Shown here in pieces: positions 41,674 through 64,000 of a stretch of 64,000 bases of DNA (within the stretch, counting starts at the first letter, position 1; each line of letters begins with the position of its first letter). The translations under genes and the position numbers were made by a program. The DNA is from Rubripirellula sp. GTDB taxonomy: Bacteria > Planctomycetota > Planctomycetia > Pirellulales > Pirellulaceae. The notes under the pieces were generated by a model. The model was not told where the DNA came from and did no database searches. It saw nothing but the letters and a program-made list of their open reading frames with translations. The stretch covers positions 4,128,001 through 4,192,000 of the forward strand of contig OZ244207.1 of the NCBI GenBank assembly GCA_965216875.1, written 5' to 3'.

Positions 41674-43104
41674 ATGAACGAAACGATCACGCAAGTCGCG
41701 GAACAACAATTCCAGTTCATGACAGCCCTGCCGTGGCTGTTGTTGGTGACGCTGACCCTGCCATTGTTGGTCGCGGCAAAGATGAAGATCTTTCCGACGC
41801 TGATTTGGTGCGGGTTGTTGGGGCTGTCGATGTTCGCCAGCTTCATCACCATCTTCCAACCTGTTGGCCTGGTCTTTGTCCTCTCTCTCGACTTGCTGAT
41901 CGTGACGGTGGTTGCGATCGATTTCTTGCTCGTCTTCTTGACGACCAACCGAGGGATCGAAGTCCATCGCGAGATGCCACGAACCTGTTCGCTCGGCGTT
42001 CCGCTCGAAAGTGAACTCACAGTCGAAAACCGGACGCCGCTGACGCTGCGTGGTTCGGTTCGTGATGACTTACCGCAAAACTTTAGAACATCGCCCGAGG
42101 AGCACCGCCTTTCGCTTCCACCAATGGGGCGAATGACAGCTGTTCGAAAGTTGACCCCCGGTCGCCGCGGCGCGTTTCAACTCGAGCATGTCTACTTGCA
42201 GTTCTACAGTCCGTTGCGACTGTGGACGCGTCACCGACGGCTCGACTTGCCACACAAGTTGAACGTCTATCCCGACATGAAGCAGCTTTCCGACTACGCG
42301 TTGCTTGCACGCACGAATCGACTCAGTCTGATCGGTGTGCGTCGGACACGACGCGTTGGCCAGGACAGTGAATTCGAACGCTTGCGTGACTACACGCGAG
42401 ATGACAACTACCGGCACATCGATTGGCGAAGCACCGCGCGGCGCCGAAAGCTGACCGTCCGCCAATTCCAAAACGACCAAAGCCAGCGCGTCATCTTTCT
42501 GCTTGATTGCGGTCGCATGATGACCAACGAAGCGGGTGGTTATTCGCTGCTTGATCACGCACTCAATTCAACGCTGATGATGGCGTACGTTGCGTTATCG
42601 CAGGGTGACTCGGTCGGAATGCTCTGTTTTTCGGACACGATCCATTCGTACATCCCGCCGCGCGGTGGTGCGAGCCAAATGAATCGGTTGATCCAAGCGG
42701 GCTTTGACCAATTCCCACGCTTGGTTGAATCACGCTATGACCAAGCGTTCCTTTATCTGTCATCCAATTGTAAACGACGTTCACTCGTCGTCCTGGCAAC
42801 CAACGTGATCGACGAAGTCAACGCGGCGTCGGTGGTTGACTACCTTGGCAACATCAACGGACAACATTTGCCACTTGGCGTGCTGCTTCGCGACCGAGTG
42901 ATGTTCGAGGCGGCCGATTCACCCGATGGCGATCCCTTTCAGATGTACCGCGCCGCCGCCGCGGCTGACATTCTGTTGTGGCGTGACCAGATCGTCAAAG
43001 ACCTGCAACACCGCGGCGTTCTCGTCGTCGACGCTTTCCCCGACGAATTGACAGCGCCCCTGGTCAACCAATATCTCGAAGTCAAAGCCAAACACCTGCT
43101 TTGA
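41674..43104 (+). CDS. Membrane-anchored DUF58 domain protein
   Basis: N-terminal TMs, EFERLRDYTRDDNYRHIDWRSTAR and LDCGRMM. Confidence 0.88.
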   Translation: MNETITQVAEQQFQFMTALPWLLLVTLTLPLLVAAKMKIFPTLIWCGLLGLSMFASFITIFQPVGLVFVLSLDLLIVTVVAIDFLLVFLTTNRGIEVHREMPRTCSLGVPLESELTVENRTPLTLRGSVRDDLPQNFRTSPEEHRLSLPPMGRMTAVRKLTPGRRGAFQLEHVYLQFYSPLRLWTRHRRLDLPHKLNVYPDMKQLSDYALLARTNRLSLIGVRRTRRVGQDSEFERLRDYTRDDNYRHIDWRSTARRRKLTVRQFQNDQSQRVIFLLDCGRMMTNEAGGYSLLDHALNSTLMMAYVALSQGDSVGMLCFSDTIHSYIPPRGGASQMNRLIQAGFDQFPRLVESRYDQAFLYLSSNCKRRSLVVLATNVIDEVNAASVVDYLGNINGQHLPLGVLLRDRVMFEAADSPDGDPFQMYRAAAAADILLWRDQIVKDLQHRGVLVVDAFPDELTAPLVNQYLEVKAKHLL

Positions 43105-43116
43105 GCATCCACGCCA

Positions 43117-43283
43117 CGTGAGCCGAAGGCGCTAGCCTCGGGCCACAGATACAAAGACGAAAGGCCCCTGACAAGCACGGCCACGCAAGGCCCGACGCTA
43201 GCGCGTTCGGCTCACGATTCGTTCGTAGTACCGCCTTTAGGCGGAAGAGCATGCAGATTCCGGCAAAAGCCGGTACGACGAAC
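43117..43283. repeat. REP cluster (CGTGAGCCG doublet and GTAG doublet)
   Basis: CGTGAGCCGAA...TTCGGCTCACG (43117-43216) and GTTCGTAGTACCG...CGGTACGACGAAC (43221-43283), between convergent genes. Confidence 0.85.
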
Positions 43284-43285
43284 GG

Positions 43286-43990
43286 TTAATTGGAATTCGG
43301 TCTCAATCCGGCCGTGGTGGCTCGGCGGACGGGTTGGCGGTTGAGGTAGCCGCGGACCACTTCGTCATGACGAATCCCGAGCTGCGATCGCGAAGACTCC
43401 GTTTTCCCCTCGGGCGCGACCACCAGCACTGCGTTCTGTTGCCAAGTTTGCTGGAAATGCGATGCCGAAATCCGCAGGTTTCCTCGCAGCGGGTCCGCAA
43501 GGAAGACGCATCCCGCCGCAACACCTCGATAGACGACAAAATGGTTCGTCCCGCCGATATCGACAACGACAATCAAAGGCACTTTGCTGCCGGTAAGATC
43601 CGCAAACGAAACCTCGCCGACGCTTGCCAAGAACCCCATCTCCTTTGCCGCATCCGAAACATCAGCCATCGTCAGGCCTTCGCGTTCGCGGTCACGTAGC
43701 TGTGCGCTACTCAACATGTTTTCGACAACGCCAAGCACCATCGGCTCGTTGACATCGTACCCCCAGTAGTACCTTAACAGCGTTGCCAGCGCCGCTGCGC
43801 CACACGAGTAGTCGCGTTGCTGCATCACAATGTTGCGGTTTTTGATTTCGCGCCAACTAAAGACCGGCTTGGCCGCTTGAAAGGCTGAATCACGAACCAC
43901 AGCTCGCGAGCTGACTTGCGCGTGGGCCGAAGTCGATGTGACAAAACCTGCAACGCAAAACGCGATCACCGCAACGGTGGTTTGCCGCAT
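43286..43990 (-). CDS. Stand-alone periplasmic C39 peptidase, FapD-like
   Basis: Sec signal (MRQTTVAVIAFCVAGFVTSTSAHA), SWREIKNRNIVMQQRDYSCGAAALATLL, NHFVV and LADPLRGN; no ABC domain. Alternative start at 44023. Confidence 0.88.
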   Translation of the reverse strand: MRQTTVAVIAFCVAGFVTSTSAHAQVSSRAVVRDSAFQAAKPVFSWREIKNRNIVMQQRDYSCGAAALATLLRYYWGYDVNEPMVLGVVENMLSSAQLRDREREGLTMADVSDAAKEMGFLASVGEVSFADLTGSKVPLIVVVDIGGTNHFVVYRGVAAGCVFLADPLRGNLRISASHFQQTWQQNAVLVVAPEGKTESSRSQLGIRHDEVVRGYLNRQPVRRATTAGLRPNSN

Positions 43991-44010
43991 GCGTTTACTC
44001 GACGGGCTAC

Positions 44011-45270
44011 TCAGTAGGTCCATATCACTCCAGCCTCCATTCCAGGTGCTGAATCAGTCACGCCGAAGTTGACAAACGGCTCCACCAAGCGGCAGTTGTG
44101 TGCAATCGTCGCCGCTAATCGAATTCGTGACGGCTCGATGTCCGATCCAGGCAGATAGACTCCATCGACCTTGGTTTCGGTGACATAGGACCCAAGAAAC
44201 GCCGTGCTCAGCGTGATACGCTCATTGGCCGCAAAACCGACTCCGAGGTTGTAAAAGACCTGGTGCCCGAGATCGACGTTTCGATTCGCAAAACGTTCTC
44301 CGAAGTTGTACGTGTATCCAGCGCCGTAAAAGAGAACCAGCGGGTCCCAAGATCGGATCACCAACAAATCGGCACCCACGTTCCAAACTCCATTTCCCAA
44401 TCCGCTGCTGTTGATCACCAGCGGATTGACGTTGGTGTTTGTTGGTGCCGCGCCTCGCAGCGTCAAAACCGTCGACTTGCTGCGGCAGGAGTCCTGGCAC
44501 AGCAGAAACGTGCCGCCGAAAGTGATGTCGCCAAAACCAAAGTCGCCACCACTGATGTCATCGAACGAATCCGAAATCTCGGTATCTGAAAACCCAACCG
44601 GTGCGTTGATGAACAACTGAGCCCGATCGGTCAGTCCATACCGCACGGCCAAGGGCACGAACCAGTTTCGCTGACGAATTTCCAATCGATCAAGCACCGG
44701 ACCTGGACCACCGAGTGTTGGCCCGTGGTTTTCTTGCAGGCCATAAACCAGTCCCATGTCAAATTGCCATTGGCCCTGACGCAACAGCGGAGAAACACTG
44801 CGCAAAAATTGCGGCGTTCGATCGACTGGGGCTTCCCCATAGTTTTGGATCTGCCGTGCCGTCCGTTGGGCTGCGACGGTGTCGACGGGAACCGCGTTCT
44901 GTACTCCACCTTCCACACTTGCCGGCAATTCGCCAGCTGTTTCGACCGATTCGGAAACACCCTGCGTCAGAACCACGGACGCAACCTGCGCGGCCACGAA
45001 CGTGTCCGTTTGTGGCGAGTTGTTTGCGTCAGACGGAGTGGTTGCTAGAAGTGTCGCTCGAGCTTCGAGTGTCTCGAGCTGAGTCGTTTCCAACTGCGCG
45101 ACACGACCATACGTCAGTCCTAACGTGTGATCGAGTTCTTCAACGTTGTCCGCCTCGGTTGGTAGATGCTCTACCAATTGGGCTTTCGCAGTCACTGGAA
45201 CGGACGAGCAAATCCCGCCCGCCAGCACCACCAATGCGGTCCTCAACCGCCTAACCATTCGACCATCCAT
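44011..45270 (-). CDS. FapF-like (COG4313/SphA-type) outer-membrane beta-barrel transporter
   Basis: Signal peptide and long N-terminal periplasmic segment, then RYGLTDR, GFGDI, GNGVW, DPLVLF, GVGFAANERITLS and GVTDSAP, ending in an aromatic residue. Confidence 0.8.
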   Translation of the reverse strand: MDGRMVRRLRTALVVLAGGICSSVPVTAKAQLVEHLPTEADNVEELDHTLGLTYGRVAQLETTQLETLEARATLLATTPSDANNSPQTDTFVAAQVASVVLTQGVSESVETAGELPASVEGGVQNAVPVDTVAAQRTARQIQNYGEAPVDRTPQFLRSVSPLLRQGQWQFDMGLVYGLQENHGPTLGGPGPVLDRLEIRQRNWFVPLAVRYGLTDRAQLFINAPVGFSDTEISDSFDDISGGDFGFGDITFGGTFLLCQDSCRSKSTVLTLRGAAPTNTNVNPLVINSSGLGNGVWNVGADLLVIRSWDPLVLFYGAGYTYNFGERFANRNVDLGHQVFYNLGVGFAANERITLSTAFLGSYVTETKVDGVYLPGSDIEPSRIRLAATIAHNCRLVEPFVNFGVTDSAPGMEAGVIWTY

Positions 45271-45415
45271 GATCCACCGGCCTGCTTGTGAGAATGTTTA
45301 ATGTGGGAACAGTTCTCGCCCGGGGTGACGAGAGCGACCATCGGAACATCGCATCCGTGTAAGTTCCGAAAACAGTCTGCCGACGCAATGGTCGGCAGTG
45401 AAACCACGGGATGGC

Positions 45416-46456
45416 TTACCAGGCGAAACCGGTCGCCAACGTCAATCCGACCAGATGGCTATTCTGTTCGCCACCAACCGCACTTGCCGTTGCAAGACTG
45501 AAACCGGGGCTACCTGAGGCCGAAACGGCAATGGCATTGCCGTCGCTACCGCCCCAATACTGGTACTCGCCACCGATGCGGGCAAACATGCGGCCGTTGA
45601 AGCTGCGAACGTAGCGCGACCACTGCAAACCGAGTCCAACTTCGCCGATGAACATGGTGGTGTCATCCTCATCGACCGCGCCATTGGTGCTTCCCGCTGC
45701 ACCACCTGGTCCAGAAAAGGACGAGTGCGTGATTGCACTGGTGTTTGCTTCGCCAAAGACGGTTGATCCGCGTCCGTTGACGTAAAGCGACAAACAACGA
45801 CAACGATTGATCGTCTTGAGACCTGACAGACTAAAGGTCAAACCGGTCCCGCTGAAGTGCTCGCGTTGGTACGACGCCAAATTGAATACGTCACCGTTGA
45901 TCGCACCATACATGTTGTTGACGCGGTTGCGGCTTGTCTTTGCATGACGAACGCCAAACGTTCCGACCATCGACCAATTGCGGCGGCAAAAGTCTTTGGT
46001 CAATTCCAAGTCGATCGTGTAGGCGTTGAATCGATCGTCACCGCCGAGCGCTTGGACCTGGTTGCCAAGAATCGGAGCAGGAATGCCATTGACCGATTCC
46101 TGTGCGGTCAGTTCCCAGTAGCGAGCTTGCCAGCCCAGTCCGCTTTGGCCGACGTAGCCCAAGTTGATTCGAGGAGCGCCCTCAAGACGTTCCGATGCGG
46201 AACCAAAGGTTGAGTTGAGCGTGATGGTTGCTGGACCGAGTGGGTCAGTAAACGTGAACGCTGCCGCGCCCGAGTCGTAGATCGGGGCGAGGTAGGTTGC
46301 TTCGACGCCAGCGTAAAGCGTGCCACAGTCATCCGGACAACATGCCGATGCAAGCGCATCGCATTGATCTTCATCGCAGCACTGGTCGGCATTGAGATGT
46401 GGGGTGACACATACAAAGGCGACTGACAGCGCCCATTTGCAGAACCGTTTCATCAT
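45416..46456 (-). CDS. Outer-membrane beta-barrel (Lpg1974/BBP7-like) with a Cys-rich leader
   Basis: Signal peptide, CCDEDQC...CCPDDC, YAGVEATYLAP, PRINLGY, amphipathic strands and C-terminal GLTLATGFAW. Confidence 0.75.
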   Translation of the reverse strand: MMKRFCKWALSVAFVCVTPHLNADQCCDEDQCDALASACCPDDCGTLYAGVEATYLAPIYDSGAAAFTFTDPLGPATITLNSTFGSASERLEGAPRINLGYVGQSGLGWQARYWELTAQESVNGIPAPILGNQVQALGGDDRFNAYTIDLELTKDFCRRNWSMVGTFGVRHAKTSRNRVNNMYGAINGDVFNLASYQREHFSGTGLTFSLSGLKTINRCRCLSLYVNGRGSTVFGEANTSAITHSSFSGPGGAAGSTNGAVDEDDTTMFIGEVGLGLQWSRYVRSFNGRMFARIGGEYQYWGGSDGNAIAVSASGSPGFSLATASAVGGEQNSHLVGLTLATGFAW

Positions 46457-46881
46457 GTTTCTCGTCCGTGAGTAAGAGATCAAATTCGCCAGGCGGTCGT
46501 TCCTTCGACCAACCTCTTTCTTAGCTACGGCGGGGACTGCTGCCGCAATCCGGGGGTAGCGAGAACTGTTCGTCGGTGTTGATCGGGTTACTCCGCCTAC
46601 CCTGGCCAAGGATTGACAACACCCCCGAGTAACCCTGCCAGCGATCAAGAGAGGTAGAACGAGCAGCAACGACACAGACCGCACCACCCGAACGGTTGCC
46701 ACGACGCAACCCACAACAAGTCGCGGTTCGGCAAAACGCAACCTTCTGAATCGAAAGTCAAAGACCTCAAAACCCGAACCAATCCGTCGGGCGCAATCGT
46801 TGCGAACAGGCAAGTTTGCCAGTCAGAGAGGCTTCAGAATTCAGCTGCGGGTGCCCGGTGCAAATCCGTTCAGGCACGAAC

Positions 46882-46915
46882 AAAAAAAACGGGCCGAGTC
46901 GTATGACTCAGCCCG
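46882..46915 (-). terminator. Intrinsic terminator downstream of the small secreted-protein gene
   Basis: Minus strand reads CGGGCTGAGTC-ATAC-GACTCGGCCCG followed by T8. Confidence 0.85.
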
Positions 46916-46976
46916 CTTTGCGTAAACGAGGGTGATTTATGGATGCTCGCCCAAAGCATGAAATGCCTGAGATGGG

Positions 46977-47339
46977 CTAGAAGCCACCAGCAATGGAGAA
47001 ACCACCAGCTGCCGAAACGTTGAACCCGGATCGGGCACGCGAGAAGTTTGCTCCCGCTGCAAAGCTGCGTCCGCGGAAACGGTAGCCATTGGCCGACTCG
47101 GAGTAACCATTGCGACTGGTCGCGTAGGCGTAGGAACGTCCCCAAACCACGCCACCTTGTCCTCGGATCTGCGAGCTTTCATTGCGGTCCATCGAACGCA
47201 TACCGCTCAATCCCATCGCGCTCAGGGCGTTACTACTGATTCCCGAGTCGCTCGTTGTACGGAACGGATCGGCAGCATCTGCCTGGGTAGTAATCGTCAA
47301 CGCCAAAGCAACCGCCAAAACACCTAACAGTCGATTCAT
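46977..47339 (-). CDS. Small secreted precursor protein: signal peptide, leader ending in IRG, then a Gly/Ser/Ala/aromatic core
   Basis: GAGG SD before ATG 47339; MNRLLGVLAVALALTITTQADA | ...AMGLSGMRSMDRNESSQIRG | QGGVVWGRSYAYA...GGFSIAGGF. Confidence 0.85.
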   Translation of the reverse strand: MNRLLGVLAVALALTITTQADAADPFRTTSDSGISSNALSAMGLSGMRSMDRNESSQIRGQGGVVWGRSYAYATSRNGYSESANGYRFRGRSFAAGANFSRARSGFNVSAAGGFSIAGGF

Positions 47340-47434
47340 CAAAGCACCTCGTCTTGTCTCAAGCAGGGTCTCCCGATGGTTGTCACCACCAAGGTGAGCA
47401 ACTCCTCAGAGAGGGGGAGCCGAATACCTGCCCC

Positions 47435-47463
47435 ATTAAAAGCACCGCCCCAATCATCGTCAA
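47435..47463 (-). promoter_or_regulatory. Candidate sigma70 promoter for the small precursor gene
   Basis: Minus strand TTGACG-N17-TTTAAT, a 5/6 match at both boxes, about 95 bp upstream of the ATG. Confidence 0.55.
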
Positions 47464-47641
47464 TCATTTATTCTCAATAACCGTCAAAAACCACGCCGTC
47501 CCTAAATGCTTTTCAATCGATCTAAATGTACATCTGTCGGCTGGCCGTAAGTGGGCAACAAAGAACGGCTTGCTGTACGGCATTTGATTAGGGGATTCAC
47601 GGAGATCGTTTGCAGCCCACAACGGTTCCTGACCGGTCACT

Positions 47642-49924
47642 TCATTGAGGCTCGGCTGGGATTCCGAGACTTTCAAGCTCTTCGTTGCCACGGGCAAACA
47701 GCCGCAAGAAGGTCGTGCGATGATGACGAAATTCGTCGGCAAACATCTCACGATCGGACGCGTACTTGCTCTCCTGGATATCGACGATGATTTTGCGCAG
47801 GCAATCGACCAGCAGCTCTTTTGCTTCTTTCTGTTGTCCGCGCTGGCACCAGATCTCCGCAAGGATGCTCATCTCCTCACATCGGTGCGCACTATCAAGT
47901 CCGTCACGAAGCTTGAGACAAAAACGTTCTGCATCATCGCTCAAGCCAACCTTGTAAGCGGCCGTCCCGAGCTTGCCGTAGCCAAGGTTGTGATCCCAAT
48001 GAGGCGAGAATGTTTCAATCAGTTCGGTGACATGCGCTGTCGACTTGCCCGATCGCTCACCCGCAGCATCGATCGCAACCAGCGCGTCGACGTATTCATC
48101 AAATCGATGTCCGACAACGCTAAAACTATCGAGCGTCGCTTCTCGGACCGACTCATCTGCATCGCCAACAAGCTCAAGGAAACGTTGATAGACACGGACG
48201 ATCGTTTCTTCCTTATTCGTGCCGTTGACTTCGACGCAAGCATCGACGTAACGATCAAAATGTCGTGCCAACAAACTATGACTGCCAAGTAGCTCTTCTT
48301 GTCGCTGAGGGTTTGCATCGCCCGCTTCGGACATAAACCGTTCGTAGGCTTCGATGATCGCCGCCGACGTGGGAACCGACTCTTGCAACTCGAGATGCTT
48401 CCGTCGGTCGAGCTCATTCTCGAATCCCAACAGCTGGCGTCCAATGTGGATCATGAGAAGCGCCCGTGCGTGCGTGCCTTCCGGCTGCTCAGTCGCCGGA
48501 TACCATCGACTGCGAGGCCCATCGAGCACGACCCAACCCTCTTCCCCGCCGCATTGAGCCGTTGCCAAGGCAACGAAATGGGAGGCGATGCCCAACTTTG
48601 GTGAGACTTCGGCGACGGTCGTCAGGTTTGCCGCTTCAAGCGTTTCGCCCTGCCACTGACTGAGCATTCCCGCGTATTCGTCGGCATCGTCCACATCGTT
48701 TTCATCGATCAGCGAAGCGTATTGCATCTCCCAGTAACAGTGGATTGCGTACACGTCTTCAGGAGGCCGCTGATGCATCTTGTAAGTGAAGAAACACCAA
48801 GTGGCACTTCCCACCAACCCTGCATCGACATCATCAGCCTCGAGTCCCGTTTGGTCTCGCATTCGATATCGAATCACCCAGAACGGTCGCAACTCGCGGT
48901 CTGGGGGCCAAGCGAGTTGCCGGTGGTCAACAATTTCCAACTCATCGGGTGCTTGCCCCAATTCATTCGGGTGCGCCAACCATTGCGAAAAGGCGGCCTT
49001 GGCCCGAAACGTGTCGTCTTGTGAATCGTTCGGAATCAAATCCTCGCGATCCAGTTCGGCCAGATAACGCGTCGCGACATCGCTATGGTTCACATCAAGA
49101 CAGTATCTCGCGAGGACCTTCAATCCTGATTCGCGTCCAAGTTTTCCCGCCGCCCAAGCCGCTTCCAATTGCACCGACGTATCGGCATGATCCATCGCCA
49201 GTGCCAGCAACTGGTCACGCGCAGGATTACTGATGAAGGGCAGTGCTGCGGTGGCACTGTGCGCGTAACTTGACTCACTCTCGTCAGGATTCTCCAACCA
49301 CTCGCGCAGCATCTGCCACCCCGCGGGCGAATCAAACGGATGGTCATCAAGTTCGCCTGCGATGGCTGGACCGTTGGCCGCATCAAGCAACGCGATCGCG
49401 AGGAAACCCTCGGGCAGCGGGTCACTCAGTGCCTGAAAAAGGTCATCACGATGCGGATGGCCGTCTGAGTAGATGCCTAAGATGACGTGCCAAAGGTATC
49501 CATCGGGCGCAAGCGGCAACTTTGCGGATGCGATGACTTTCTCGGTACCCGCGGGCGCACCGTACATCGCCAAAATCTTCAACACGTAAAGTAAGTCGCT
49601 CGGGTCGTCTTGATCAACCGTTTGCATCAGTTCATCAAACATGCGAACAAGTTCTGGCAGTCCCTCGAGGTAGAGCACTTCATACGCGGGAACGTCCGTA
49701 CCGTCGACATCCTGAAACAAGCCCGCAAGCGCATAGAGTGGTGACTGGAGAACACTCTTGCTCGAGCAGTCGGCAATCGAGAGGCTTTGCAGCGCTTCGC
49801 AGATTGCCTTGGCGTCTTTTTTTGAACTGATCGCGTAGTCATCCAAACCCTGCAACTCTTTGACCAAGTCACCGCCTGGTTTCATGCCGCGCGCGATCGC
49901 TCGGCGAAGAGGACTGCTAAACAC
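47642..49924 (-). CDS. Large acidic alpha-helical (HEAT/TPR-like) hypothetical protein
   Basis: 760-aa ORF with HEAT-like LAMDHADTSVQLEAAWAAGKLG and a TPR-like C-terminus. Confidence 0.7.
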   Translation of the reverse strand: MFSSPLRRAIARGMKPGGDLVKELQGLDDYAISSKKDAKAICEALQSLSIADCSSKSVLQSPLYALAGLFQDVDGTDVPAYEVLYLEGLPELVRMFDELMQTVDQDDPSDLLYVLKILAMYGAPAGTEKVIASAKLPLAPDGYLWHVILGIYSDGHPHRDDLFQALSDPLPEGFLAIALLDAANGPAIAGELDDHPFDSPAGWQMLREWLENPDESESSYAHSATAALPFISNPARDQLLALAMDHADTSVQLEAAWAAGKLGRESGLKVLARYCLDVNHSDVATRYLAELDREDLIPNDSQDDTFRAKAAFSQWLAHPNELGQAPDELEIVDHRQLAWPPDRELRPFWVIRYRMRDQTGLEADDVDAGLVGSATWCFFTYKMHQRPPEDVYAIHCYWEMQYASLIDENDVDDADEYAGMLSQWQGETLEAANLTTVAEVSPKLGIASHFVALATAQCGGEEGWVVLDGPRSRWYPATEQPEGTHARALLMIHIGRQLLGFENELDRRKHLELQESVPTSAAIIEAYERFMSEAGDANPQRQEELLGSHSLLARHFDRYVDACVEVNGTNKEETIVRVYQRFLELVGDADESVREATLDSFSVVGHRFDEYVDALVAIDAAGERSGKSTAHVTELIETFSPHWDHNLGYGKLGTAAYKVGLSDDAERFCLKLRDGLDSAHRCEEMSILAEIWCQRGQQKEAKELLVDCLRKIIVDIQESKYASDREMFADEFRHHRTTFLRLFARGNEELESLGIPAEPQ

Positions 49925-50139: not shown

Positions 50140-51359
50140 TTTTTTAGCGCCGCGACATCAGCCAAATTCTTTAGGTTGCTGAGAACATGATCGGTATCAG
50201 GACCAAAATCGAGCAAACAGGCGATCTCGGTCACTCCGATCGCCTGCAGTTCTCGGCATGTCGCGGCGCATGATTGCACCGTCCCCATCAACGACCGGCC
50301 ACCAATGAACTTGTTCAACATCCACTCGAGCATTTGATCGAGTTCTGCTTTTGGCAAAGTTTCCAAATCCATTGTCTGCCCTTGGCTCACCGCCAATTGC
50401 TTGAGCAGTCCCAGGTTGTCGCGCAGGTATTCGCAGTAGGCTGCACCGGCTTCTTCCCGAACTTGGTCAAACGTTTCGCCCACAAACGTGTGCAGTGTGA
50501 CTGCGATTTCGCCCGGTCCTTGGTGCCCGGCACGGCCTCGTGCTTGCCGGTAGATGTCAACCTTGACCTTCAGTTCACCGATGTCCTGATTGAAAAGGTG
50601 CGTCAGAACGCCAACACCCATTTCGCCGGCGCGGCGAAAGGTCTCGGGATTGCCCGCGGCAGTCAACCAAACTGGCAATTCGGGTTGCACCGGCGTTGGG
50701 TAGGTTCGGACTGAAATCGAATCACCCGTCCCACTTGCGCGTTGCACCTCTTCGCCTCGCCAAAGCCGGCGCACCTGATCGATTCCGTCGTACATGTTGT
50801 CCGATCGATCTTGATACGCCTCAGGAGCGAGCACGAAGTCATCGGGATGCCAACCAGAAGCAAAGGCAAGCTCCACTCGCCCACCTGACAAATTGTCGAC
50901 CACGGCCCATTGCTCAGCGACGCGAAGTGGATCGTTCAGCGGCATCACAACACTGCCCGCTTTGAGTTTCAAGCTCTTGGTTCGACTTGCAATCGCTGCA
51001 TGTAAAACCGCGGGACTGGGATAAAGGCAACCAAACTTTGTGAAATGGCGCTCAGGCAACCAAATCCCATCGAAGCCGTGGCGGTCGGCAAACAAGGCCG
51101 CTTCGGTCAGCAATCGATACTTGTCCCCCTTGGCGTCCGTTTCCTGGTCTCCAAAAAACATCAACGACATTCTTAGGTCGGACGCATCACCATCAGCAAC
51201 CACGTCGGCTTTCGAAGCGTCGCGGATCGCCTGCAAACACTCCTGCTTGGTTCCCGCGATCGTTGTACGCGTCCATCCGCTGGGCACATCGCGATCGATG
51301 GGCCAACACGACGAACGGCCTGTTCCATTTTGAACGACGATGTAACGTTCCGTCTTCAC
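50136..51359 (-). CDS. MbtH-like domain fused to a MupA/Atu3671-type luciferase-like monooxygenase
   Basis: N-terminal YIVVQN...SCWP...VPSGW...KQECLQAI, then SLMFF, WLPERHF, LRVAEQWAVVDNLSGGRV, ASGWHPDDFV and EIACLLDFG. The GTG start overlaps the megasynthase stop. Confidence 0.88.
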   Translation of the reverse strand: MKTERYIVVQNGTGRSSCWPIDRDVPSGWTRTTIAGTKQECLQAIRDASKADVVADGDASDLRMSLMFFGDQETDAKGDKYRLLTEAALFADRHGFDGIWLPERHFTKFGCLYPSPAVLHAAIASRTKSLKLKAGSVVMPLNDPLRVAEQWAVVDNLSGGRVELAFASGWHPDDFVLAPEAYQDRSDNMYDGIDQVRRLWRGEEVQRASGTGDSISVRTYPTPVQPELPVWLTAAGNPETFRRAGEMGVGVLTHLFNQDIGELKVKVDIYRQARGRAGHQGPGEIAVTLHTFVGETFDQVREEAGAAYCEYLRDNLGLLKQLAVSQGQTMDLETLPKAELDQMLEWMLNKFIGGRSLMGTVQSCAATCRELQAIGVTEIACLLDFGPDTDHVLSNLKNLADVAALKK

Positions 51360-54300
51360 GATTCACCCCTCGCGGACTTTGGCAAAGCCTTGGGGTCATG
51401 AAGATGCCCGTACGCCACACAACCGACTTCGATTCCGGCGCCGACCGAGACGAGCAGCCACGTTTCGGATTTCGTTGTCTTGAGAGTCTTACCCAACGCG
51501 ATCGCAATCGTTGACGTAAAGGCATCGCTACCCTGCGAATCGGCTGCGACCACGGCATCAACATCAATGCCAAGGGCTTGCGCAACCACAATCGGGGCAA
51601 TGCGAGTTGGGGTCGTCACCAAGACGCGATTGAATTGTGCAATCGACGTTCCTTCGCGCCCTAGGAAGTCATCAACGGCGTCGATCAAACAAGCGACAAC
51701 GGTCTCCTCGAGATCATCCGACCGTTCGATCTCCAACCTCGCCACGCGCTGGACCAGACGCGTTCGCGTTACGAGTTTGCCTGCGTGCTCTGGATAGGAT
51801 TTAAAGAAGAACTCACCGAAACCCTCGCTCGCGTTGTCGGTCCGTTCAATTGCAATTGCTGACCCACCAATCACAAGCCCGTACTGAGCAAACGACCGAT
51901 CATTGTTCTCAGTTTCCGAGGCGGTGATCAAAGCACGCTTGCCCGCTCCTGTTCTCAGCGACCCGGCAACCAGACTGCACGCAACAAGTGGCCCGCGAGA
52001 GCTGTCGGTCAAGTCGTAGGCAAGCCCTCGGCTATCGCCCTCGGCAACCTCGGCCATCCCCAGCTCTCCCGACACGATCGCCGCAACGGCTGGCTCACTA
52101 AGAAACTCGTCCCGATACACGCCTGCATGAATCAACATGTCTACATCACTGGCTTGCCAGTCGACAGAAGCCAACGACTTGGAAGCCGCGGCGAGGCTGG
52201 TTCGGACAACGGACATTTCAACCGCACTCTCGATGCTGCCATTAAGATTCGGTTCCTGCGTTTCCTTGACCCAAGAGGTCGCCACAATACGAGTCCCGAA
52301 CAATTGATTCGGTAGGGTGATCGGGGCAACCGAACTCGACTTGGTTCCATCAGCAATACGCTCGGGGAGCGAATCGAAGGTATAGAGTGCTGTCCCGATC
52401 GTTTGCCCCGAACCACTGATGGCGAAAACAGCGCGATCCTCTTTCTGTATTCGTCCGCCAAGAATCATGTCCATCACCGCGACCCAGTGGGTCGTGCTGG
52501 CGGTGTTGCCACGATGCGTCAAGTTGTTGACGGTATTCTTGTGATCACACACGGTTGCATCGAAGTGTCGATTGAGTTCCTCAATCGCTCCATCGAGCGT
52601 TGTCGTCGACGTTTGATGCATGATGACGTGTTGAATCTCGTCGGGCCGCCACTTTCGTTGAACCAACGATCGATGCGCGTGGTTGACCGAAAGGTCGAGT
52701 GTCACGGCCGACGCTTTCACAGCATCGGTGTACATGATCGCGCCACCGTGCGGGCGGTCCGTCACTTTCGCAACGCACAAATCATGGTGCCGTCCATCGG
52801 TGTAGAGATCGAGGGACTCAAATCCATAGCCACTGTCGGTCAGTTCTACGATCACCGCCGCACCGGCATCGCCGAGCGTCAAACAAGCCAGACGAGGATC
52901 AAGAAACCCTTCGATTTCCTTTTGGGCCGTTTTGGTTAGGTGCGTGATGTACTCGCCACTGACAATCATCACGCGCGCCGCCTGACCACTGCGCAATTGG
53001 TCTTCTGCAATGGAAAGGGCTGTAAAGAACCCAGCGCAGGCGTTGCATACATCAAACGCCAATGCCGAAGTCGCACCAAGTCGCTGCTTCAGTTTGGAAG
53101 CCGTTGAGGGTTCATAGGAAACTTCGAAGTCCGGCCCGTCGTAGCGAGAGATATTGCATGCGATAAGCGAATCAATCTCGCCCGCTTCGAATCGTGAGTT
53201 TTCGAGACAGCTGATCGCGGCCTTGAATGCGAGATCGATCGCGAACTCCGTTTCCCCGGCAACGTGTCGACTTTGGATTCCCGTCATTCGCTCAAGCGGG
53301 AACTCAAGTTTTTTCTGGCAACCTTCGATGACCTCATCGGTCGTCTCGGTCGCAGGGGGCAGATAAGTGCCTAAACTTTCGACCGTCATCTTCAACGAAG
53401 TCGATCGCGACGGTTCCTGCGCAACAGAATCGATCGTTTGTTGCCCGATCGGCTGGCCCAAGACATCTGGCTCGGCCGCAGCCTGCGTTTCAGCTGCGGG
53501 CCCGTCGGCATCGATCGCGGCAGCCAGCTCGGCGACGGTCTGGAACTGAAACATGCGTTCGGCCGACACTGAAAAGCCTTCACGCATCGCCAGCTCGGCG
53601 GCTTGAAGTGCCTGCAGTGATGCGCCACCCAACTCGAAAAAGTTGTCGTGAATGCCTACCGAAGGGACATTCAAGACCTTGCACCAAATCGCTGCGATCA
53701 CCTTTTCCGTTGGTGTCGATGGCGGAACGGCCTCGGTGGCTTCAACTGCATCACTGGGATCTGGCAAGCGGGTTGCATCCAGTTTGCCGCTCACGGTCAA
53801 CGGAAATGCGTCCACACCGACAAACGCTTTGGGGACCATGTAGCAAGGCAAATGACTTGCGACATGCTTGCGAAGATCGGCTTGGAAGGAAGCGTCATCG
53901 GCATCGCTGCTGCGAGGCCGATCGGCGAGGTAGTAACCGACTAAGCCGATTCCCGAGTGATACAACACGTGAGCGTCTTTGATTGACTTGCCCGCGCGCA
54001 TCACGGCCGCGATCTCACCCGGCTCGATTCGATTTCCGTCCACCTTGACTTGGTCATCGATGCGGCCGAGGAATTCAACCTCACCCGTTGTCGTCCAACG
54101 CGCGCGATCGCCCGATCGATACATCGAGGCATCAAAAGCATCGCTAAAGGGGTTGGGCACAAAGACGTCCGCGGTCAACTCGGGTCGCCCGAAGTATTCA
54201 AGCGCCAATCCGGGACCTGAAATACAAAGTTCACCTGGAACGCCGATGGGCATCGGTTCAAGATGCCCGTCCACAATCTCGATTCGTACGTTGGACACCG

Positions 54301-57300
54301 GTTGTCCCAACGAAGGCTCTGTTCCGTCACCCGAGCATTGGTGAGTCGACGCCCAGACGGTCGTTTCAGTTGGGCCGTAGGCGTTGAACATTCGCCGAGG
54401 GTTTCCGGCACGTTCGATCCATTTGTCGACCAGCTGCGCCGAACAGGCTTCGCCCGCAGAAATGACGGTATGCAAAGCGGGCAAGTCGTCACTCGAAAGC
54501 GCCGACAAAACCGACGGAGGCAACGTCGCGACGTTGACATTTGAACGGCGCAATTGGTCTGTGATTTCACCAGTTGACGACCGAACGACCCCCGGGTCGA
54601 TCACATAAAGCGTCGCTCCGGCATGAAGTGCCAGAATGATTTCGAAAACGGACGCGTCAAAGTGCAACGAACTGAACTGCAGACATTTGTCGCTCGCCTG
54701 AATACCAAATGTCTTGCGTTGGGCCACGGCCATGTTGGCGATTCCGCGGTGCGTCAGGACGGTTCCCTTGGGTTTCCCAGTCGATCCAGAGGTGTAGATC
54801 AGGTAGGCCAAGTCATCGTGCGTGACCTTCGGCAAAGCAACGCGTTCGGAGTTCCCGAAACGAGCTTCGTCACCACCAATCGACACCACGACGCGATACC
54901 CACCGAGCGCAAGTTCATCGATCTTGTTTTGATCTTGGTCGGTCAAAACCACGTCAGGCGAAGCGTCGGCAAAGATCGCCTGCAATCGCGATCGAGGGTG
55001 TGCCGGGTCAAGCGGAACGTATGCAGCGCCCGCTCGCCAAGCAGCCATGATTCCGATGATCGATTCAACGCCTCGACCAGCCAACAACCCGACGATGTCC
55101 CCCTTGCGGGTTCCGGCCGAGAGAAGCCGAGCCGCAACGCTGTCGACACGTTGATCGAGTTGGCGATAAGAGATTGCCGCCGATTCCGATTCGAGTGCGA
55201 TTGCATCTGGCGTTTGCTTTGCCCATTGCCGAAGCAATGCGTCACCCGCATGATCGGGATCAAAATCGACGTGCGTATCGTTCCACCGCGTGATGCACTC
55301 CTGCTGTTCCAACGAAAGCAGCGGCGCGGTGCGAATCGGAACATCGGGATTGATGGCGATCGCATCAATCAACGTATTGAAGCTCTGCGAAAGACTCTCG
55401 ATCGCTTCGTCGCTAAACAAATCGGTGTTGTAGCGAAATGTCAGCTTCAATTCGTCTTCGAGTTCGAATACGATCAAGGTCAAATCAAAGGGAGCGCCGC
55501 GCTGTTCCATCAACAACGGCTTGAGCCTCAAACGGTCGCTCGACTTACCCGGCGCGAAGTGCGATTCTTTGAGGTGCCGCGGCTTGTCCCAAATGAACAT
55601 CGTCTGGATCAGCGGCGATCGACTCGTATCGCGGAGCGGCCGGACCTTCTCGACCAGTTTGGCAAACGGCAACGCTTGGTGCTGCAACGCGTCGAGTACT
55701 TCGCGTTGACTGTCACGAAGCACATCACGGAACGTCGGCGAACCGTTGATCCGGGTTCGCAAAACAAGCTGGTTCAGGAAATAGCCGACGATCCCTTCCC
55801 ATTCCGAACGTCCGCGACTCGCCGAAACCGTTCCAACGAGCAGATCATCCTGGCCACAGATGCGTGACAAAAACGTTTGGTACGCGGCAAGCACAATCGT
55901 GAACAGTGTCGTTCGTTCTTCAACCGCAACATCGCGAAGCGATTCGACAACCTCCGTCGGGACCGTCCACTCCAACGATTTTCCGTTGAACGTCTGCTCG
56001 GCAGGACGCTGGTAGGTCGTCGGCAACTCCAATACATGCGGTGCACCTTCGAGTTTGCGTTGCCAAAACCGCCAAAGCTGCTCGCCCTCTTCACTAGTGT
56101 CGAGCCCGCGCTCCCAATCGACGTAGGCGTCGTAGGTCGTTGGCAGTGTCCCCAAATCGATCGTCCCGCCACCAACGATCATTGCGTAAAGGTCAAGCAA
56201 CTCCTGGATCAACACGTCCATCGACCACAGGTCGGCCGCAATATGGTGCATCGCGATCGACAAGACGTCTCCCTTGCGACATCGCAAGAGCGTGAAACGA
56301 ATGACCGGACCGTCCTGGAGATCAAAGGGGGCGTCGGCTTGATCGCGAATCCAATCGACCATGCGGCTCCGCTTCCAATCCTGGCAGTCCTTTTCGGCAA
56401 TCTCGACATCGATCGAATCGGACAAAACGCGAACCGCGGCATCACCATCGAGTCGATAGCGAGTTCGCAAGACGGGATGGCGTTTGACGAGCGAGCGACA
56501 TGCCTTGGTCATCGCGTCGCGGTCGATCGTGCGCGACGTTTGTGCTGCAAAGGCAAAGTTGTACGCGGGGCCCTCAGGAGCACGCTGGTGAATCAACCAC
56601 AAAGCTGTCTGACCGACCGACATCGGACCAAGCACACGCTCGCCCGTCGACGGTGACCGGCGAGTGGCGATGTCGGTGGTTTGCGGTTGCCGTTGCGACG
56701 AGGGGTCGGTTGCCAAATCCGACGCTACCCGGTCGGCAACACTCACTTCCTGACGGTCTCCGCGAGGAACAATCGAGCGAGGGTCGACTTCTTGGGAATC
56801 GAGCGCAATGCTCATCAATTGCGTGAGCGACTTGCCCTCAAGGAACGCGACCATCGGCACCGACAACTCAAGCTCCGACGAAAGTCGGTTCTTCAATTGA
56901 ATCGCCATCAACGAATCGATACCGAGATTGGACACCGGCTGGTCGATGTCGATCTCAGCCGGATCATGCTCAAGCACTGCGGCAACGGCGTGACGAAAGT
57001 AGTCTTCGAGCGCTGCTCGGCGACCGTCAACGTTGCTGCTTTGTTGAAACGCTTCAACCCACTTGGACAGGTCGACTCGCGTTTTCCCGGCTCTCTGAGC
57101 TGAACGGTTCCCCAATGATCGTGATGCGGATTGCGAACTCGTTGCTTTCTGAGGCCTCGAATCATCGCCTACACCGGTCGCAACCAAGACCGCTTGGCCT
57201 TGTTGGACGCGCGCCAACGAAGCATCAGGAGCGAGGATGGCGGGGTCGCGATACCCGCATCCATTCAACAGTTGCAGCCAAGCTTTTGAATCAATCAGAG

Positions 57301-60300
57301 GATAGTTCGGCCTCAACTCCGAATCTTCGAATCGCCACCACCCTTCGGTCAGTCCAAAGATCAAATCGAGCATCGGCTCGGGGCGGACGCCTTCGAGTGC
57401 CACCAACAAACCGCCCGACCTGAGCAATCGATTTGCGTTGGACAAGGTCCGTTTCAAGTCACTCGTCGCGTGAAAAACGTTTGCGGCGATCACGATGTCA
57501 AAAGCGTCTTCTTCGAATCCTTGCGACTCGATGGTCGATTCGATATCGAGCACTTGAAACTCGAGCGAGCCCGAGGCTTCTTGAGAAGATTCGAAGCGTC
57601 CCGACGCTTCCGCCACGAGCAGCGGCGAGACATCGGTGAACACATAGGATTCAACCTTATCTTTGATCGCGGGCCAAACGAAACTTGTCGTTCCGCCCGT
57701 GCCGCCTCCGATTTCAAGCACGCGTATTGGGCGCGATGGATCGTGCGCCAATTGCGTGTCGATCGCCGCGACCACCGCGTCGGCAACCGTCTGATTGCAA
57801 ACCTGGGCGACCGGTGAGGCGCGGTAAAGCGATTCCAAATCGGACGCATCTCCGCCAGGGAAAAGGACCTCCAGAGGATCGGTCTGGCCAGCGAGAACGG
57901 ATGCAAGTTTGCTGCCGCAACGAGCCACCAGTTTGAGTTCCCGAGTCACGGAGGGATGCTTTTGCCTCAGTGGTGCAACTGCGCCACACAACTGGGACGC
58001 CTCAATTCGCTGGTGCCCCACAACGCGCCAAGACCTTGTGGATTGATGCTCGATGGGCTCCAGCCATCGTTGGTCAGCCAAAATCTCGCATATGCGCTCG
58101 GCCAAACGCAAATGTTTCGCAGCGATTCGTCCCACTGCCACTTCGTTTGCAAGATCCACAACTTGGCCGTCGCGATCCGCAAGTCCGAGCGTCTCGAACG
58201 CCTTGTACATGTAACGCGCAACCAATTGATCGACTTCTGGCTTTGCAGCAGCGTAAGACTCGAGTTCCTCGGCCAAACCGTGACAGTCTCGATCGCGTTG
58301 CCTATCGGTCACCGACGAGGCAATGGTGTCGGTATCGATGCTCGGCGCGGCATCGTTCTTCGCGTCATCCAACCAGTAGCTTCGCGGTTGGAAGGGGTAC
58401 CCTGGAAGCCGGAAATTCGAAGGTTCCGACCGGTCGCGACTTCCGTTGACTTCATCCCAATCGAGTTCGACACCTCGGCAGAAAAGCTCTCCAACCGCAG
58501 TCAACACACAACGCAAATCGTCTTGACCGCGAACGAGTGTTTGTAAGTAGTCGATAGGGATGTTGCTATTGAGTTGCCCCAAGGTGCAAAGTGTCGGATG
58601 CGGTCCGATCTCGATGGCAACATCACACTTTGACTTGGCCAATGACTCGAGGGCGCGGACATATTGAACTGGCTCGCGACTGTGGCGTGTCCAGTAATTC
58701 GGCGAACAGACTTCCGAAGTCACCTGCTGGCCGGTGAGTGACGAGATATACGTCTTCTCTGGCAACGACAACTTGGCTGACTCGATCACACCTTTGATAG
58801 GCTCGAGCACCGGGTCCATCAGCGAGGAATGAAACGCTTGATTGATTCGCAAAGGCCGTGTTGTGGTTCCCGCTGCCGCCAACGTGTCTTGCAACATGGC
58901 GATTCCCGACGAGGCACCCGAAACCACGATGTGCTCGGGAGCATCGATCGCTGCGATCGACAGGTCCTGTCCAAGTTCATTGATTCGATGCTGCACCGAC
59001 TCGGCCGAATCAAAGACAACGGTCATCGCACCTGCTTGGCTAAGCAGCGAGACGTGACGGGCACGCACTGCCGTCAATCGCAATGCATCCTCCCAGGTCA
59101 TCACACCCGAGATCGCCGCCGCCGCGAACTCGCCCATGCTATGGCCCAGCACGGTCGTCGCACCAGCGCCGAATTGCTCGAACGTCTTGGCGAGCGCAAG
59201 TTGCAACGAAAACAAACTCGTTTGTGCAGCCGGTCCGTTTAGCAATTCGGCCACGGCCCCATTGGTCTCGGGCGACGAAGCGATCAGATCGGTGATCGAA
59301 TGATCGAACTCGTCCCTCAGAAGTTCATCACAGCAATCGATCCACTTCCGAAACGTTGGGAGATGGCGATACAGCATCTGTCCCATGCCGACGTGCTGTC
59401 CACCTTGACCGGTAAACAGCATCGCGATCGAAACCGCTCGGTCAGAGAGGGCCGTTGCGGCGCAAACATGTTCGCTTGCCTTGCCCTCGGCAAACTGCGT
59501 CAACCGCTCCGCAACGGTTTCTTTCGAACTTCCGACAACGGCGACACGATGACGTAGACTCGACCGTTGATATTGGGTCGCCTGTGCGATCACGTCGAGC
59601 TCGCCCGCACTTTGCCGCAATACGTCACCATGCTGGCGAGCCAAATCTGCTAGGCCCTCGACGTGGCCCGACGACAACGTGATTAGACTTGGAAGTGTGC
59701 CGGTTGGACTCGCTTTCGGTGCTCGCTTTGGTCTTTCGCCTTGGCCAACAATCACATGAGCGTTGGTGCCTCCGAATCCAAACGAACTCACTGCCGCCCG
59801 GCGACGCGTTGAGTCGTCCCATCTCGCATTGGTTGTCGAAATCGACAGACGCGATTCATCGAGATCGATGTGTGGATTCAATACGGCAAGGTTCGGCTGC
59901 GAAACCACCTCGCCATGTTCCAGCTCCAACACAACTTTCAAAAGACTGGCCAATCCTGCCGCCGACTCGAGATGACCGAGGTTTGCTTTGACTGCACCTA
60001 AGAAACAGTCGTTGGCCTGCTGTCCGCGTCGGCCATAGACTTGGTTCAGGCTGCGAAATTCGATCGGATCGCCAAGGATCGTTCCCGTGCCGTGCGCTTC
60101 GATTCTGGAAACGGCAGACGGTTCTAGCGCGGCATCAGCAAGTGCGTTTCGATACAGCTGCTGCTGAGCATCACCACTCGGGGCGGTGATACCATTGGTC
60201 AAGCCATCCTGATTAATCGCCGTTCCTTCGATGACGGCACGAATGAGGTCGCCGTCACGCCGTGCCGCCTCAAGCGGCTTCAACACAACCGCAATGCACC

Positions 60301-63118: not shown

Positions 63119-63216
63119 CGTCCCATTTTGGGGGACGCAATTTTCGGGCAAGAACCAGTTGAACCGACAAGAATAATTCAATTCTTGAGGCTTTTCCAAA
63201 GAAGGTAAATCGCCGC

Positions 63217-64000
63217 ATGCCGCCGACACCAAAGCCACGCTTCGCAGTCACCGGTGCAGCGGGGTTTATTGGCCGTCAACTCGTCCAATCCCTCGTCGCC
63301 GACAACCACGAAGTGACCGCTATCGTGCGCTCAGAGAAACCGTCAAGCAAGGCTTGGGGGGAACAAGTGCGCGTTGTCGAAGCCGACGTTGAAAACCCCG
63401 GTTCGCTGCGAGGTCTTTTCGACGACGCCGAGGTGGTCGTACACCTTGCCGGCCGTACGCTGGCAAAAAACCGCAAACAATTTGACCGGGTGAACGTCGA
63501 GGGCACGCGGAACGTCGCTGAAAGTTGTGCTCGATCCGATTCGCCTCCGCGACTTGTGTTGGTTTCTTCCCTCGCCGCAGGCGGCCCCAAAAAACTCACC
63601 GCAGGCGGTCCCAAAGAGCTCGCCCCGGCAGGTCGGAAGGCTGCGTCGGGCGGTCGGAAGGCTGCGTCGGGCGGTCGGAAGGCTGCGCTGGGCGGTCGGA
63701 AGGCTGCGCCGGGCGGTCGGAAGGCTACGCCGGGCGAACCCGTCTCACACTACGGCAGCAGCAAACGATTGGCCGAGGAGACGCTCGAACGATTCTCCGG
63801 GAAACTACCGATGCGAATCCTGAGACCGCCGACCGTTTTCGGAGAAAACGATCCCTACATGTTGGGCTTGTACAAAACGGCCAAACGCGGCTTTGTCGTT
63901 TTACCCGGCCGCCATGACTTTCGCTATTCGTTGATTCACGTCGACGATTTGGCCGACGCAATCATTCACCTGTCGAACTTCGAGGGTGCCGCCACAAAAG
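63217..64000 (+). CDS. Extended SDR (NAD-dependent epimerase/3-beta-HSD, OleD/LstD-like), runs off the window edge
   Basis: Absent from the ORF track. Manual translation from ATG 63217 gives VTGAAGFIG, VVHLAG, NVEGT, VSS, YGSSK, RPPTVFG and IHVDDLA; open to the end of the window. Confidence 0.88.
   Translation, partial: MPPTPKPRFAVTGAAGFIGRQLVQSLVADNHEVTAIVRSEKPSSKAWGEQVRVVEADVENPGSLRGLFDDAEVVVHLAGRTLAKNRKQFDRVNVEGTRNVAESCARSDSPPRLVLVSSLAAGGPKKLTAGGPKELAPAGRKAASGGRKAASGGRKAALGGRKAAPGGRKATPGEPVSHYGSSKRLAEETLERFSGKLPMRILRPPTVFGENDPYMLGLYKTAKRGFVVLPGRHDFRYSLIHVDDLADAIIHLSNFEGAATK
63571..63735 (+). repeat. In-frame coding tandem repeats (2 x 24 bp and 5 x 21 bp)
   Basis: CTC.CCGCAGGCGG.CCCAAA.A. 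twice (63571-63618); GGTCGGAAGGCT.CG..GGGC five times (63631-63735). Confidence 0.92.

Follow-up and report, generated by a model that had tools for sequence, protein, structure and literature searches.

A compact locus of the planctomycete Rubripirellula sp. (GenBank assembly GCA_965216875.1) joins a full-length homolog of the outer membrane channel FapF and a stand-alone, FapD-like C39 peptidase to a small secreted precursor from a large unannotated family, whose core may be the subunit of a surface fiber. The locus lies in a 64,000-nucleotide stretch of contig OZ244207.1 (positions 4,128,001 to 4,192,000; hereafter the window), and its four minus-strand open reading frames (ORFs) encode the precursor, an extra outer membrane barrel, the channel, and the peptidase. 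A first-pass annotation, made from the sequence alone, had reported four co-oriented genes with Sec-type signals; the genes are where it placed them, and by eye all four proteins show basic N-terminal residues, then a hydrophobic stretch and an AxA-type site. Each gene is single-copy in the 8.26-Mb genome. What that annotation overlooked is a probably cleavable leader that ties the cargo to FapE and FilA.

In our judgment, the balance of probability tips slightly toward the following course of events. The 120-residue precursor would cross the inner membrane by Sec; the periplasmic C39 peptidase would cut it at a leader ending in [V/I]-R-G-x; the released core would leave through the FapF-like channel; and the four-stranded core would polymerize into a surface fiber, with multiparalog genomes building mixed or alternative fibers. 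Cleavage at the leader is highly probable, and passage of the cargo through the channel equally so. It is fairly probable that the subunits polymerize by joining edge strand to edge strand, packing their Gly/Ala/Ser faces against one another and leaving the variable face exposed.

The putative exporter and the leader of its cargo

The first-pass annotation had proposed a FapDF-type machine with a different, smaller cargo, and this is supported. The channel carries the RYGLTDR, GNGVW, DPLVLF, and GVTDSAP motifs noted earlier, and its family consensus retains a PTG motif. As a single sequence, it matches the NCBIfam FapF model at E 7.5e-18 (64.5 bits, far below the cutoff of 700) and the FapF crystal chains in the PDB at E 3.5e-15. 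A profile of 40 family members matches FapF at E 9.9e-38 over profile positions 9 to 279 of 283, and the four FapF sequences are all that it retrieves from the PDB at E ≤ 1. Its N-terminal region is variable and rich in P/S/T/E, and no coiled coil was evident by eye in the 14 ORFs viewed. The C39 protein passes the cutoff of its Pfam family and is nearest to the FapD (E 1.4e-29; 103 bits against a cutoff of 330) and FilB (E 3.5e-24) hidden Markov models (HMMs), scoring below both cutoffs; its family profile also matches LahT (E 1.3e-15). The catalytic residues, described earlier as an intact Q-x5-C, H, and D, are Q68, C74, H161, and D177 in the numbering of the 245-residue ORF; across 48 homologs, H and D never vary, and conservation of Q and C is at least 90%. 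A quick tree was computed for 126 C39 rows, leaving out six probable duplicates as well as rows that were split or not of the FapD type. In it, 65 of 66 planctomycete rows fall on one side of a branch with a Shimodaira-Hasegawa-like approximate likelihood ratio test (SH-aLRT) value of 94 (not starred), and family relatives fall among named Bremerella and Rubripirellula records.

The cargo belongs to a family of 927 clusters at 50% identity (profile search, E ≤ 0.001). All 77 precursors from the fetched loci consist of a signal peptide, followed by the leader and then by a variable core of 44 to 155 residues. The leader has the consensus L-x2-[MLF]-G-L-x-G-[LM]-x2-[VMIL]-S-D-x-[EQ]-[GA]-x2-[VI]-R-G-x, and its end is nearly invariant: V/I in 77, R in 74, and G in 76 of the 77, and 150, 148, and 148, respectively, in the top 150 database matches. 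With the window's sequence kept out of its training set, a leader HMM retrieves this ORF alone from 48,339 ORFs of the genome (E 1e-6; the next is at E 2). A precursor 44% identical to it occurs in Novipirellula galeiformis (Pla52o_32810), a cultured carrier of the system, as is Bremerella cremea (L088). No Pfam or NCBIfam family matches the window's precursor at cutoff, and none is convincing for the cargo family; a sequence search of the PDB gave no convincing named family, and an Atlas search gave 30 matches, among which the three clusters listed are unnamed and come mostly from Planctomycetota. The first-pass annotation saw no FapA/B/C-type Asn/Gln repeats, and no FapA/B/C/E model matches any of the 77 precursors at E ≤ 0.1. 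A search for cargo fused into larger proteins found none at E ≤ 0.001 among 8000 candidates of 322 to 2000 residues, which is weak evidence.

Set against the double-Gly leader recognized by LahT (reference positions from the accessible part of PMC6363468), the planctomycete leader fits at five positions: a hydrophobic residue at -12, S/T at -11, E/Q at -8, V/I at -4, and G at -2. This register predicts a cut after R-G-x, with a cut after R-G also possible, and AlphaFold2 predicts a helix directly before the RG. Searched with a generic version of the tag, 28 of 60 non-planctomycete C39 loci (0.80 Mb) yield 36 matching ORFs, versus 3 in the window's own genome (8.26 Mb). The carriers in those loci include one FapE (locus L154) and two FilA proteins (L083 and L164), each above its NCBIfam cutoff, as well as several DUF6160 proteins. 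As the leader is common to bona fide FapE and FilA, the [V/I]-R-G-x tag likely marks the FapD-type cut site. Both FapE and FilA are described as fiber components (accessible parts of PMC5557850 and PMC11784438), the latter being named a pilus subunit (PMC11784438). FapD catalysis is required for secretion, and the target of FapD is called unclear in the accessible part of PMC5557850. FapE peptides were detected there solely from residue 72 on (supplementary file 6), which is compatible with a cut near residue 40 without locating it; the reviewers of that paper doubted this peptide evidence. The part of a 2026 FapB preprint that is accessible describes FapD just as a precursor-processing protease. 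The Creative Commons portion of PMC and bioRxiv yielded no description of this planctomycete locus and no R-G-x leader in FapE or FilA; Supplementary Fig. 18 of PMC5557850, on GG/GA motifs of FapE, may mark the site. In other lineages, small signal-plus-leader ORFs adjoin FapF-like and C39 genes at six loci (L111, L112, L113, L114, L116, and L136), with cores that differ widely, from Gly/Lys-rich sequences to Tyr/Gly/Asn repeats and short hydrophobic peptides.

Linkage and distribution of the gene set

Fifty C39 stretches were fetched, and two without a FapF-like gene (L005 and L080) were set aside; with the window included, this gave 49 loci. Among these FapD-type loci, 47 have the FapF-like gene, 40 the 10-strand-type barrel, and 38 a precursor; in several of the loci that miss one of these genes, the contig breaks off. 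As the FapF-like gene accompanies C39 in 47 of 49 loci and the barrel does so in 40, the clustering exceeds chance expectation; gene order and orientation vary between loci, while the set remains together. Across 301 genomes of the family, C39 was found in 43. A genome-wide search with the precursor profile, in which up to 15 candidates per genome were scored, found the cargo in 40, all among the 43 C39-positive genomes, and in none of the 258 C39-negative ones. Within these family genomes, precursor homologs were thus found solely where the peptidase was found as well, in line with the linkage that the first-pass annotation expected. In one of the three cargo-less C39-positive genomes, the C39 match lies in a 791-residue frame, probably a C39 fused to an ATP-binding cassette (ABC) transporter. 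Cargo copies number 1 to 13 per genome. No immunity-like gene is conserved in clusters of three or more loci.

Farther afield, the cargo was found in 23 of 401 genomes across the class, mostly in the same order; in large families, it was found in 0 of 98, 0 of 88, and 3 of 97 genomes, within those searched. A single C39 query found the peptidase in 3 of 401 genomes across the phylum. The idea that the locus encodes a universal crateriform fiber is unsupported by these counts.

Some loci show further peculiarities. A MamK-like actin (L055:6418-7503; NF040964 E 7e-77, 259 bits, cutoff 400) is present in five multicargo loci (L055, L056, L059, L064, and L066), close upstream of the FapF-like gene, and might position export sites. 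Two loci are possibly decaying copies: L036 (genome G619) has a shortened FapF-like ORF and is without the barrel, with no cargo found in its genome, and L079 (G552) has a split C39.

The mature core and its possible fates

The AlphaFold2 model of the cargo, based on 98 sequences, has two short leader helices followed by four antiparallel strands (residues 40-49, 56-66, 70-81, and 84-95 of the model), and the core is predicted to be a flat, single-layer, four-strand sheet. A single-layer sheet of this kind needs partners. The cores contain 41% G/A/S, are mostly without Cys, and have a median N+Q content of 8%. Small residues recur with a period of two, at a mean over 227 cores that was reached by none of 500 shuffles. 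The small face is 92% G/A/S, a figure that is descriptive only, as the columns were picked after viewing the alignment, and the variable face of a 28-member subfamily is 39% V/I/L/F/Y/W/M. Many cores carry K/R/E on the outward, non-small face, and the tolerance of these residues argues against lipid contact.

Searches for the fold of the core return generic flat sheets only. Foldseek gave no match at E ≤ 0.001; its top rows are the autotransporter anchors Hia and AtaA, which are not significant (E 0.3-0.5; Z 6.2-6.3), and the best structural neighbors are four-strand segments of gasdermin/complement pores (Z 8.5, root mean square deviation [rmsd] 1.6, 60 aligned residues, 2% identity). One relative is encoded at L057:3817-4335, where the same leader is followed by approximately six 23-residue curlin-like repeats in place of the core (CsgA model, E 5.8e-7); this cargo appears to be a curli-like subunit on a FapF-type exporter. 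CsgA-type repeats have no match in the window's own cargo, and 1 of 77 relatives matches below the cutoff. Terminator-like hairpins lie 3' of 31 of 77 cargo genes versus 5 of 39, 7 of 48, and 8 of 50 machinery genes, suggesting that cargo genes are often terminator bounded, as the gene of an abundant subunit might be. The 5' end of the cargo gene is covered by a 262-base contig from one run of guessed RNA type; the run had been chosen by that share, and the contig is not used as evidence. Taken together, the predicted sheet, the period-two pattern, the K/R/E-bearing face, the curlin-repeat relative, the terminator hairpins, and the lack of a conserved immunity-like gene make an extracellular polymer more likely than a toxin or an oligomer in the membrane.

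Several observations pull in the other direction. The cargo model has a mean predicted local distance difference test (pLDDT) score of 77.6 and a predicted template modeling (pTM) score of 0.44, with the other four models at pLDDT 61-68, and the period-two signal is modest, with 142 of 227 cores individually positive. The register of the cut is uncertain because the leader departs from the canonical form at two positions: -7 is G in 39 and A in 32 of the 77, where Leu is canonical, and -1 is variable (Q, L, E, K, T, M, and others), where G/A/S is canonical. The generic tag pattern was written after viewing loci of that kind, and it misses the window's own cargo. The positive side of the genome-wide co-occurrence is partly circular, as the profile came from those same loci; the negatives are not circular. 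Nine of the 49 loci are without the barrel in the fetched stretch, several being ended by contig edges. By eye, hairpins of the barrel looked like mimics of the cargo core, but this resemblance is unsupported: searches with four core HMMs placed no barrel among their top 18 matches. Finally, the nap island, which uses related machinery, exports bioactive peptides rather than fibers, according to the accessible part of PMC11798529.

This last precedent, in which a C39 peptidase and a FapF homolog accompany GG peptides (PMC11798529, accessible part), underlies the proposal that the core is exported as a diffusible bioactive peptide, akin to the Naps or bacteriocins, and might form minimal beta-barrel pores once removal of the leader has activated it. 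Hypervariable cores with up to 13 paralogs per genome, the Arg-rich core of the window's cargo, and the pore segments that head the structural neighbors would fit such a role. The median net charge of the 227 cores, however, is -2, with 109 at -3 or below and 23 at +3 or above. Furthermore, neither face is uniformly hydrophobic, no conserved immunity gene accompanies the loci, and Z scores near 8 are common for flat-sheet arrangements; we regard this fate as unlikely. Slightly less probable still is that the core remains embedded in the outer membrane or attached to it, where it would form a homo-oligomeric structure, a small barrel or lattice, possibly together with the 10-strand barrel. A narrow lumen would fit a four-strand unit that has one small-residue face, and the trimeric-type anchors Hia and AtaA top the Foldseek rows, but those matches are the nonsignificant ones given above, and the charged residues on the outward face speak against this arrangement. 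The C-terminal residue, most often R (28), P (18), or F (11) of 77, provides no constant aromatic signal, and insertion by the beta-barrel assembly machinery (BAM) would not need a dedicated FapF-type channel. Least probable of all is that the channel imports, or that the core stays in the periplasm, with the cleaved peptide plugging the barrels, partnering with them, or signaling to them. The channel does weakly resemble the MetA-pathway/COG4313 family (PF13557, E 7e-4), which includes an importer (accessible part of PMC5557850), and its N-terminal region is without an evident coiled coil; however, its family profile singles out FapF chains in the PDB, the leader is common to the secreted FapE and FilA, and a cargo with curlin repeats exists.

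The extra barrel noted by the first-pass annotation is present, and its description can now be corrected to a 10-stranded, Legionella porin/BBP7-like fold unrelated to FilD. The AlphaFold2 model is confident (pLDDT 92.2), with ten membrane strands as read from the model, and 9nh1, a Legionella porin, is the structure that it matches best (Z 23.6, rmsd 3.3, 244 aligned residues); TM-scores are 0.56 against the Legionella porin and 0.24-0.30 against FadL. The window's barrel has no Pfam or NCBIfam match; PF05150 is detected in 9 of 29 barrel homologs at E ≤ 0.1, and the FadL-type PF03349 in 0 of 29, while the same model matches the FadL-type ORF of a Fil locus. No barrel of the 10-strand type was found in the 60 non-planctomycete C39 loci examined. 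It might serve as an anchor or assembly base for the fiber, a role that we rate as less likely than not.

Table 1. Features of the locus, in window coordinates
Feature	Position	Strand	Remarks
Cargo precursor, 120 aa	46977..47339	minus	Signal peptide ~1-23, leader 24-61, mature core 62-120
Conserved leader motif, residues L39-Q61, ending I58-R59-G60-Q61	47157..47225	minus	Predicted C39 cut after Q61 (or G60)
Mature core, 59 aa	46980..47156	minus	AlphaFold2: four antiparallel strands, small residues alternating
Intrinsic-terminator-like hairpin 3' of cargo gene	46886..46919	minus	15-pair stem plus T run
Extra outer membrane barrel, 346 aa	45416..46456	minus	Predicted 10 strands, Legionella MOMP/BBP7-like, long Ala/Ser-rich hairpins
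FapF-like outer membrane channel, 419 aa	44011..45270	minus	FapF homology; N-terminal region variable, low-complexity
Stand-alone FapD-like C39 peptidase with signal peptide	43286..43990 (ORF up to 44023)	minus	PF03412, E 1.1e-20

The approximately 430 bases between the hairpin and the barrel start (46457-46885) form an open frame without an Rfam or promoter match. A search of 43000-47800 for structured RNAs gave nothing convincing (one match at E 0.52), and a search for sigma-70-like promoters at the locus gave no match. Just past the C39 gene (43186-43285) lies a short, multicopy, palindromic repeat resembling repetitive extragenic palindromic (REP) elements, with a summed contig depth of 13,743 versus ~126 nearby. 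Upstream on the same strand (47642-49924) is a 760-residue HEAT-repeat protein, which probably lies outside the system because a homolog is near C39 (~10 kb away) in only one other locus, L041. Downstream (51356-63238) is a 3960-residue ORF that we take to be a hybrid polyketide synthase/nonribosomal peptide synthetase-like protein, with a luciferase-like monooxygenase and an MbtH-like N terminus.

Significance and relation to Fap, Fil, and Nap

Planctomycete fibers are well imaged, and their subunit goes unnamed in the accessible parts of reviews and imaging work (PMC5394234). The locus offers a candidate fiber subunit for some lineages and is too patchy for a phylum-wide fiber. Its near-invariant leader, found in hundreds of cargos with the peptidase, provides a precise site to mutate here, in FapE, and in FilA, and, with one cargo, one protease, one channel, and one barrel, the minimal locus is easier to study than the fap operon with its six genes. 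As a bolder and still tentative proposal, these loci might define a new class of surface fiber: small four-strand beta-meanders, silk-like in their Gly/Ala/Ser face, that are matured by C39, pass through a FapF-type channel, and have the 10-strand barrel as their anchor, a single genome encoding as many as 13 interchangeable subunits. If this is true, Fap, Fil, and Nap would be variants of a single, modular pathway of secretion, to which a common R/T-G-x leader directs the cargo; the leader would also name the FapD cut site. If portable, the leader might be attached to designed beta-sheet materials as a tag for export.

The locus appears to work like Fap, Fil, and Nap, in that a Sec cargo with a second leader is combined with a stand-alone C39 and a FapF-type channel, and by its sequences it is a member of none of them. 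As in the fapABCDEF operon of Pseudomonas, a signal-bearing stand-alone C39 adjoins the channel gene, the cargo is probably Sec dependent, and FapE of L154 has the same leader after its signal peptide. In contrast to Fap, neither the window's proteins nor the 77 precursors include a FapA/B/C/E homolog at E ≤ 0.1, the cores are Gly/Ser/Ala-rich and without the Asn/Gln repeats of FapB and FapC, the gene order is fapF-C39, an extra 10-strand barrel is present, and the C39s occupy a separate branch of the quick tree. A 2013 survey placed fap operons only in Proteobacteria, with many FapD and FapF matches outside them (accessible part of PMC3792158). The putative Fil pilus of Acinetobacter (FilA/DUF6160, FilB, FilC, and FilD) is similar in that a single locus encodes a leader-bearing subunit, a C39, a FapF-like channel, and another barrel, and the FilA leader is of the same type, ending in T-G-Q. 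However, FilA is a DUF6160-type protein of ~290 residues that 0 of 77 precursors match at E ≤ 0.1, with true FilA scoring above cutoff in the same libraries; a sequence search found no solved FilA structure. FilD is of the FadL type (PF03349, E 4e-32), unlike the barrel here. The window's C39 is homologous to FilB and scores below the cutoff of its model, on a different branch of the tree.

The nap island of Neisseria (NapP, NapF, and NapA-C) likewise pairs a C39 and a FapF homolog with a small, leader-bearing, non-Fap cargo; the Naps are cationic helical peptides of 16 to 36 residues with a putative immunity gene (accessible part of PMC11798529), whereas the cores here are longer, predicted to be beta, mostly neutral or acidic, and accompanied by a barrel and no immunity-like gene. 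With the PCAT/AMS transporters (LahT and PCAT1), the system shares the C39 fold and the leader spacing of -12, -11, -8, -4, and -2, differing in that its C39 is not ABC fused, its leader sits behind a Sec signal, and positions -7 and -1 are G/A and variable, respectively. The barrel shares a 10-stranded fold with long hairpins with the Legionella MOMP-type porin (PF05150, 9nh1) and BBP7, at 16% identity to the porin, and here it is tied to a cargo locus. Since Fil and nap already pair FapD/FapF-type genes with non-Fap cargo, the locus is not a new kind of export system and is best viewed as a planctomycete variant. What is new here is the large, unannotated family of beta-meander cargos, the tying of its occurrence to C39, and the dedicated 10-strand barrel.

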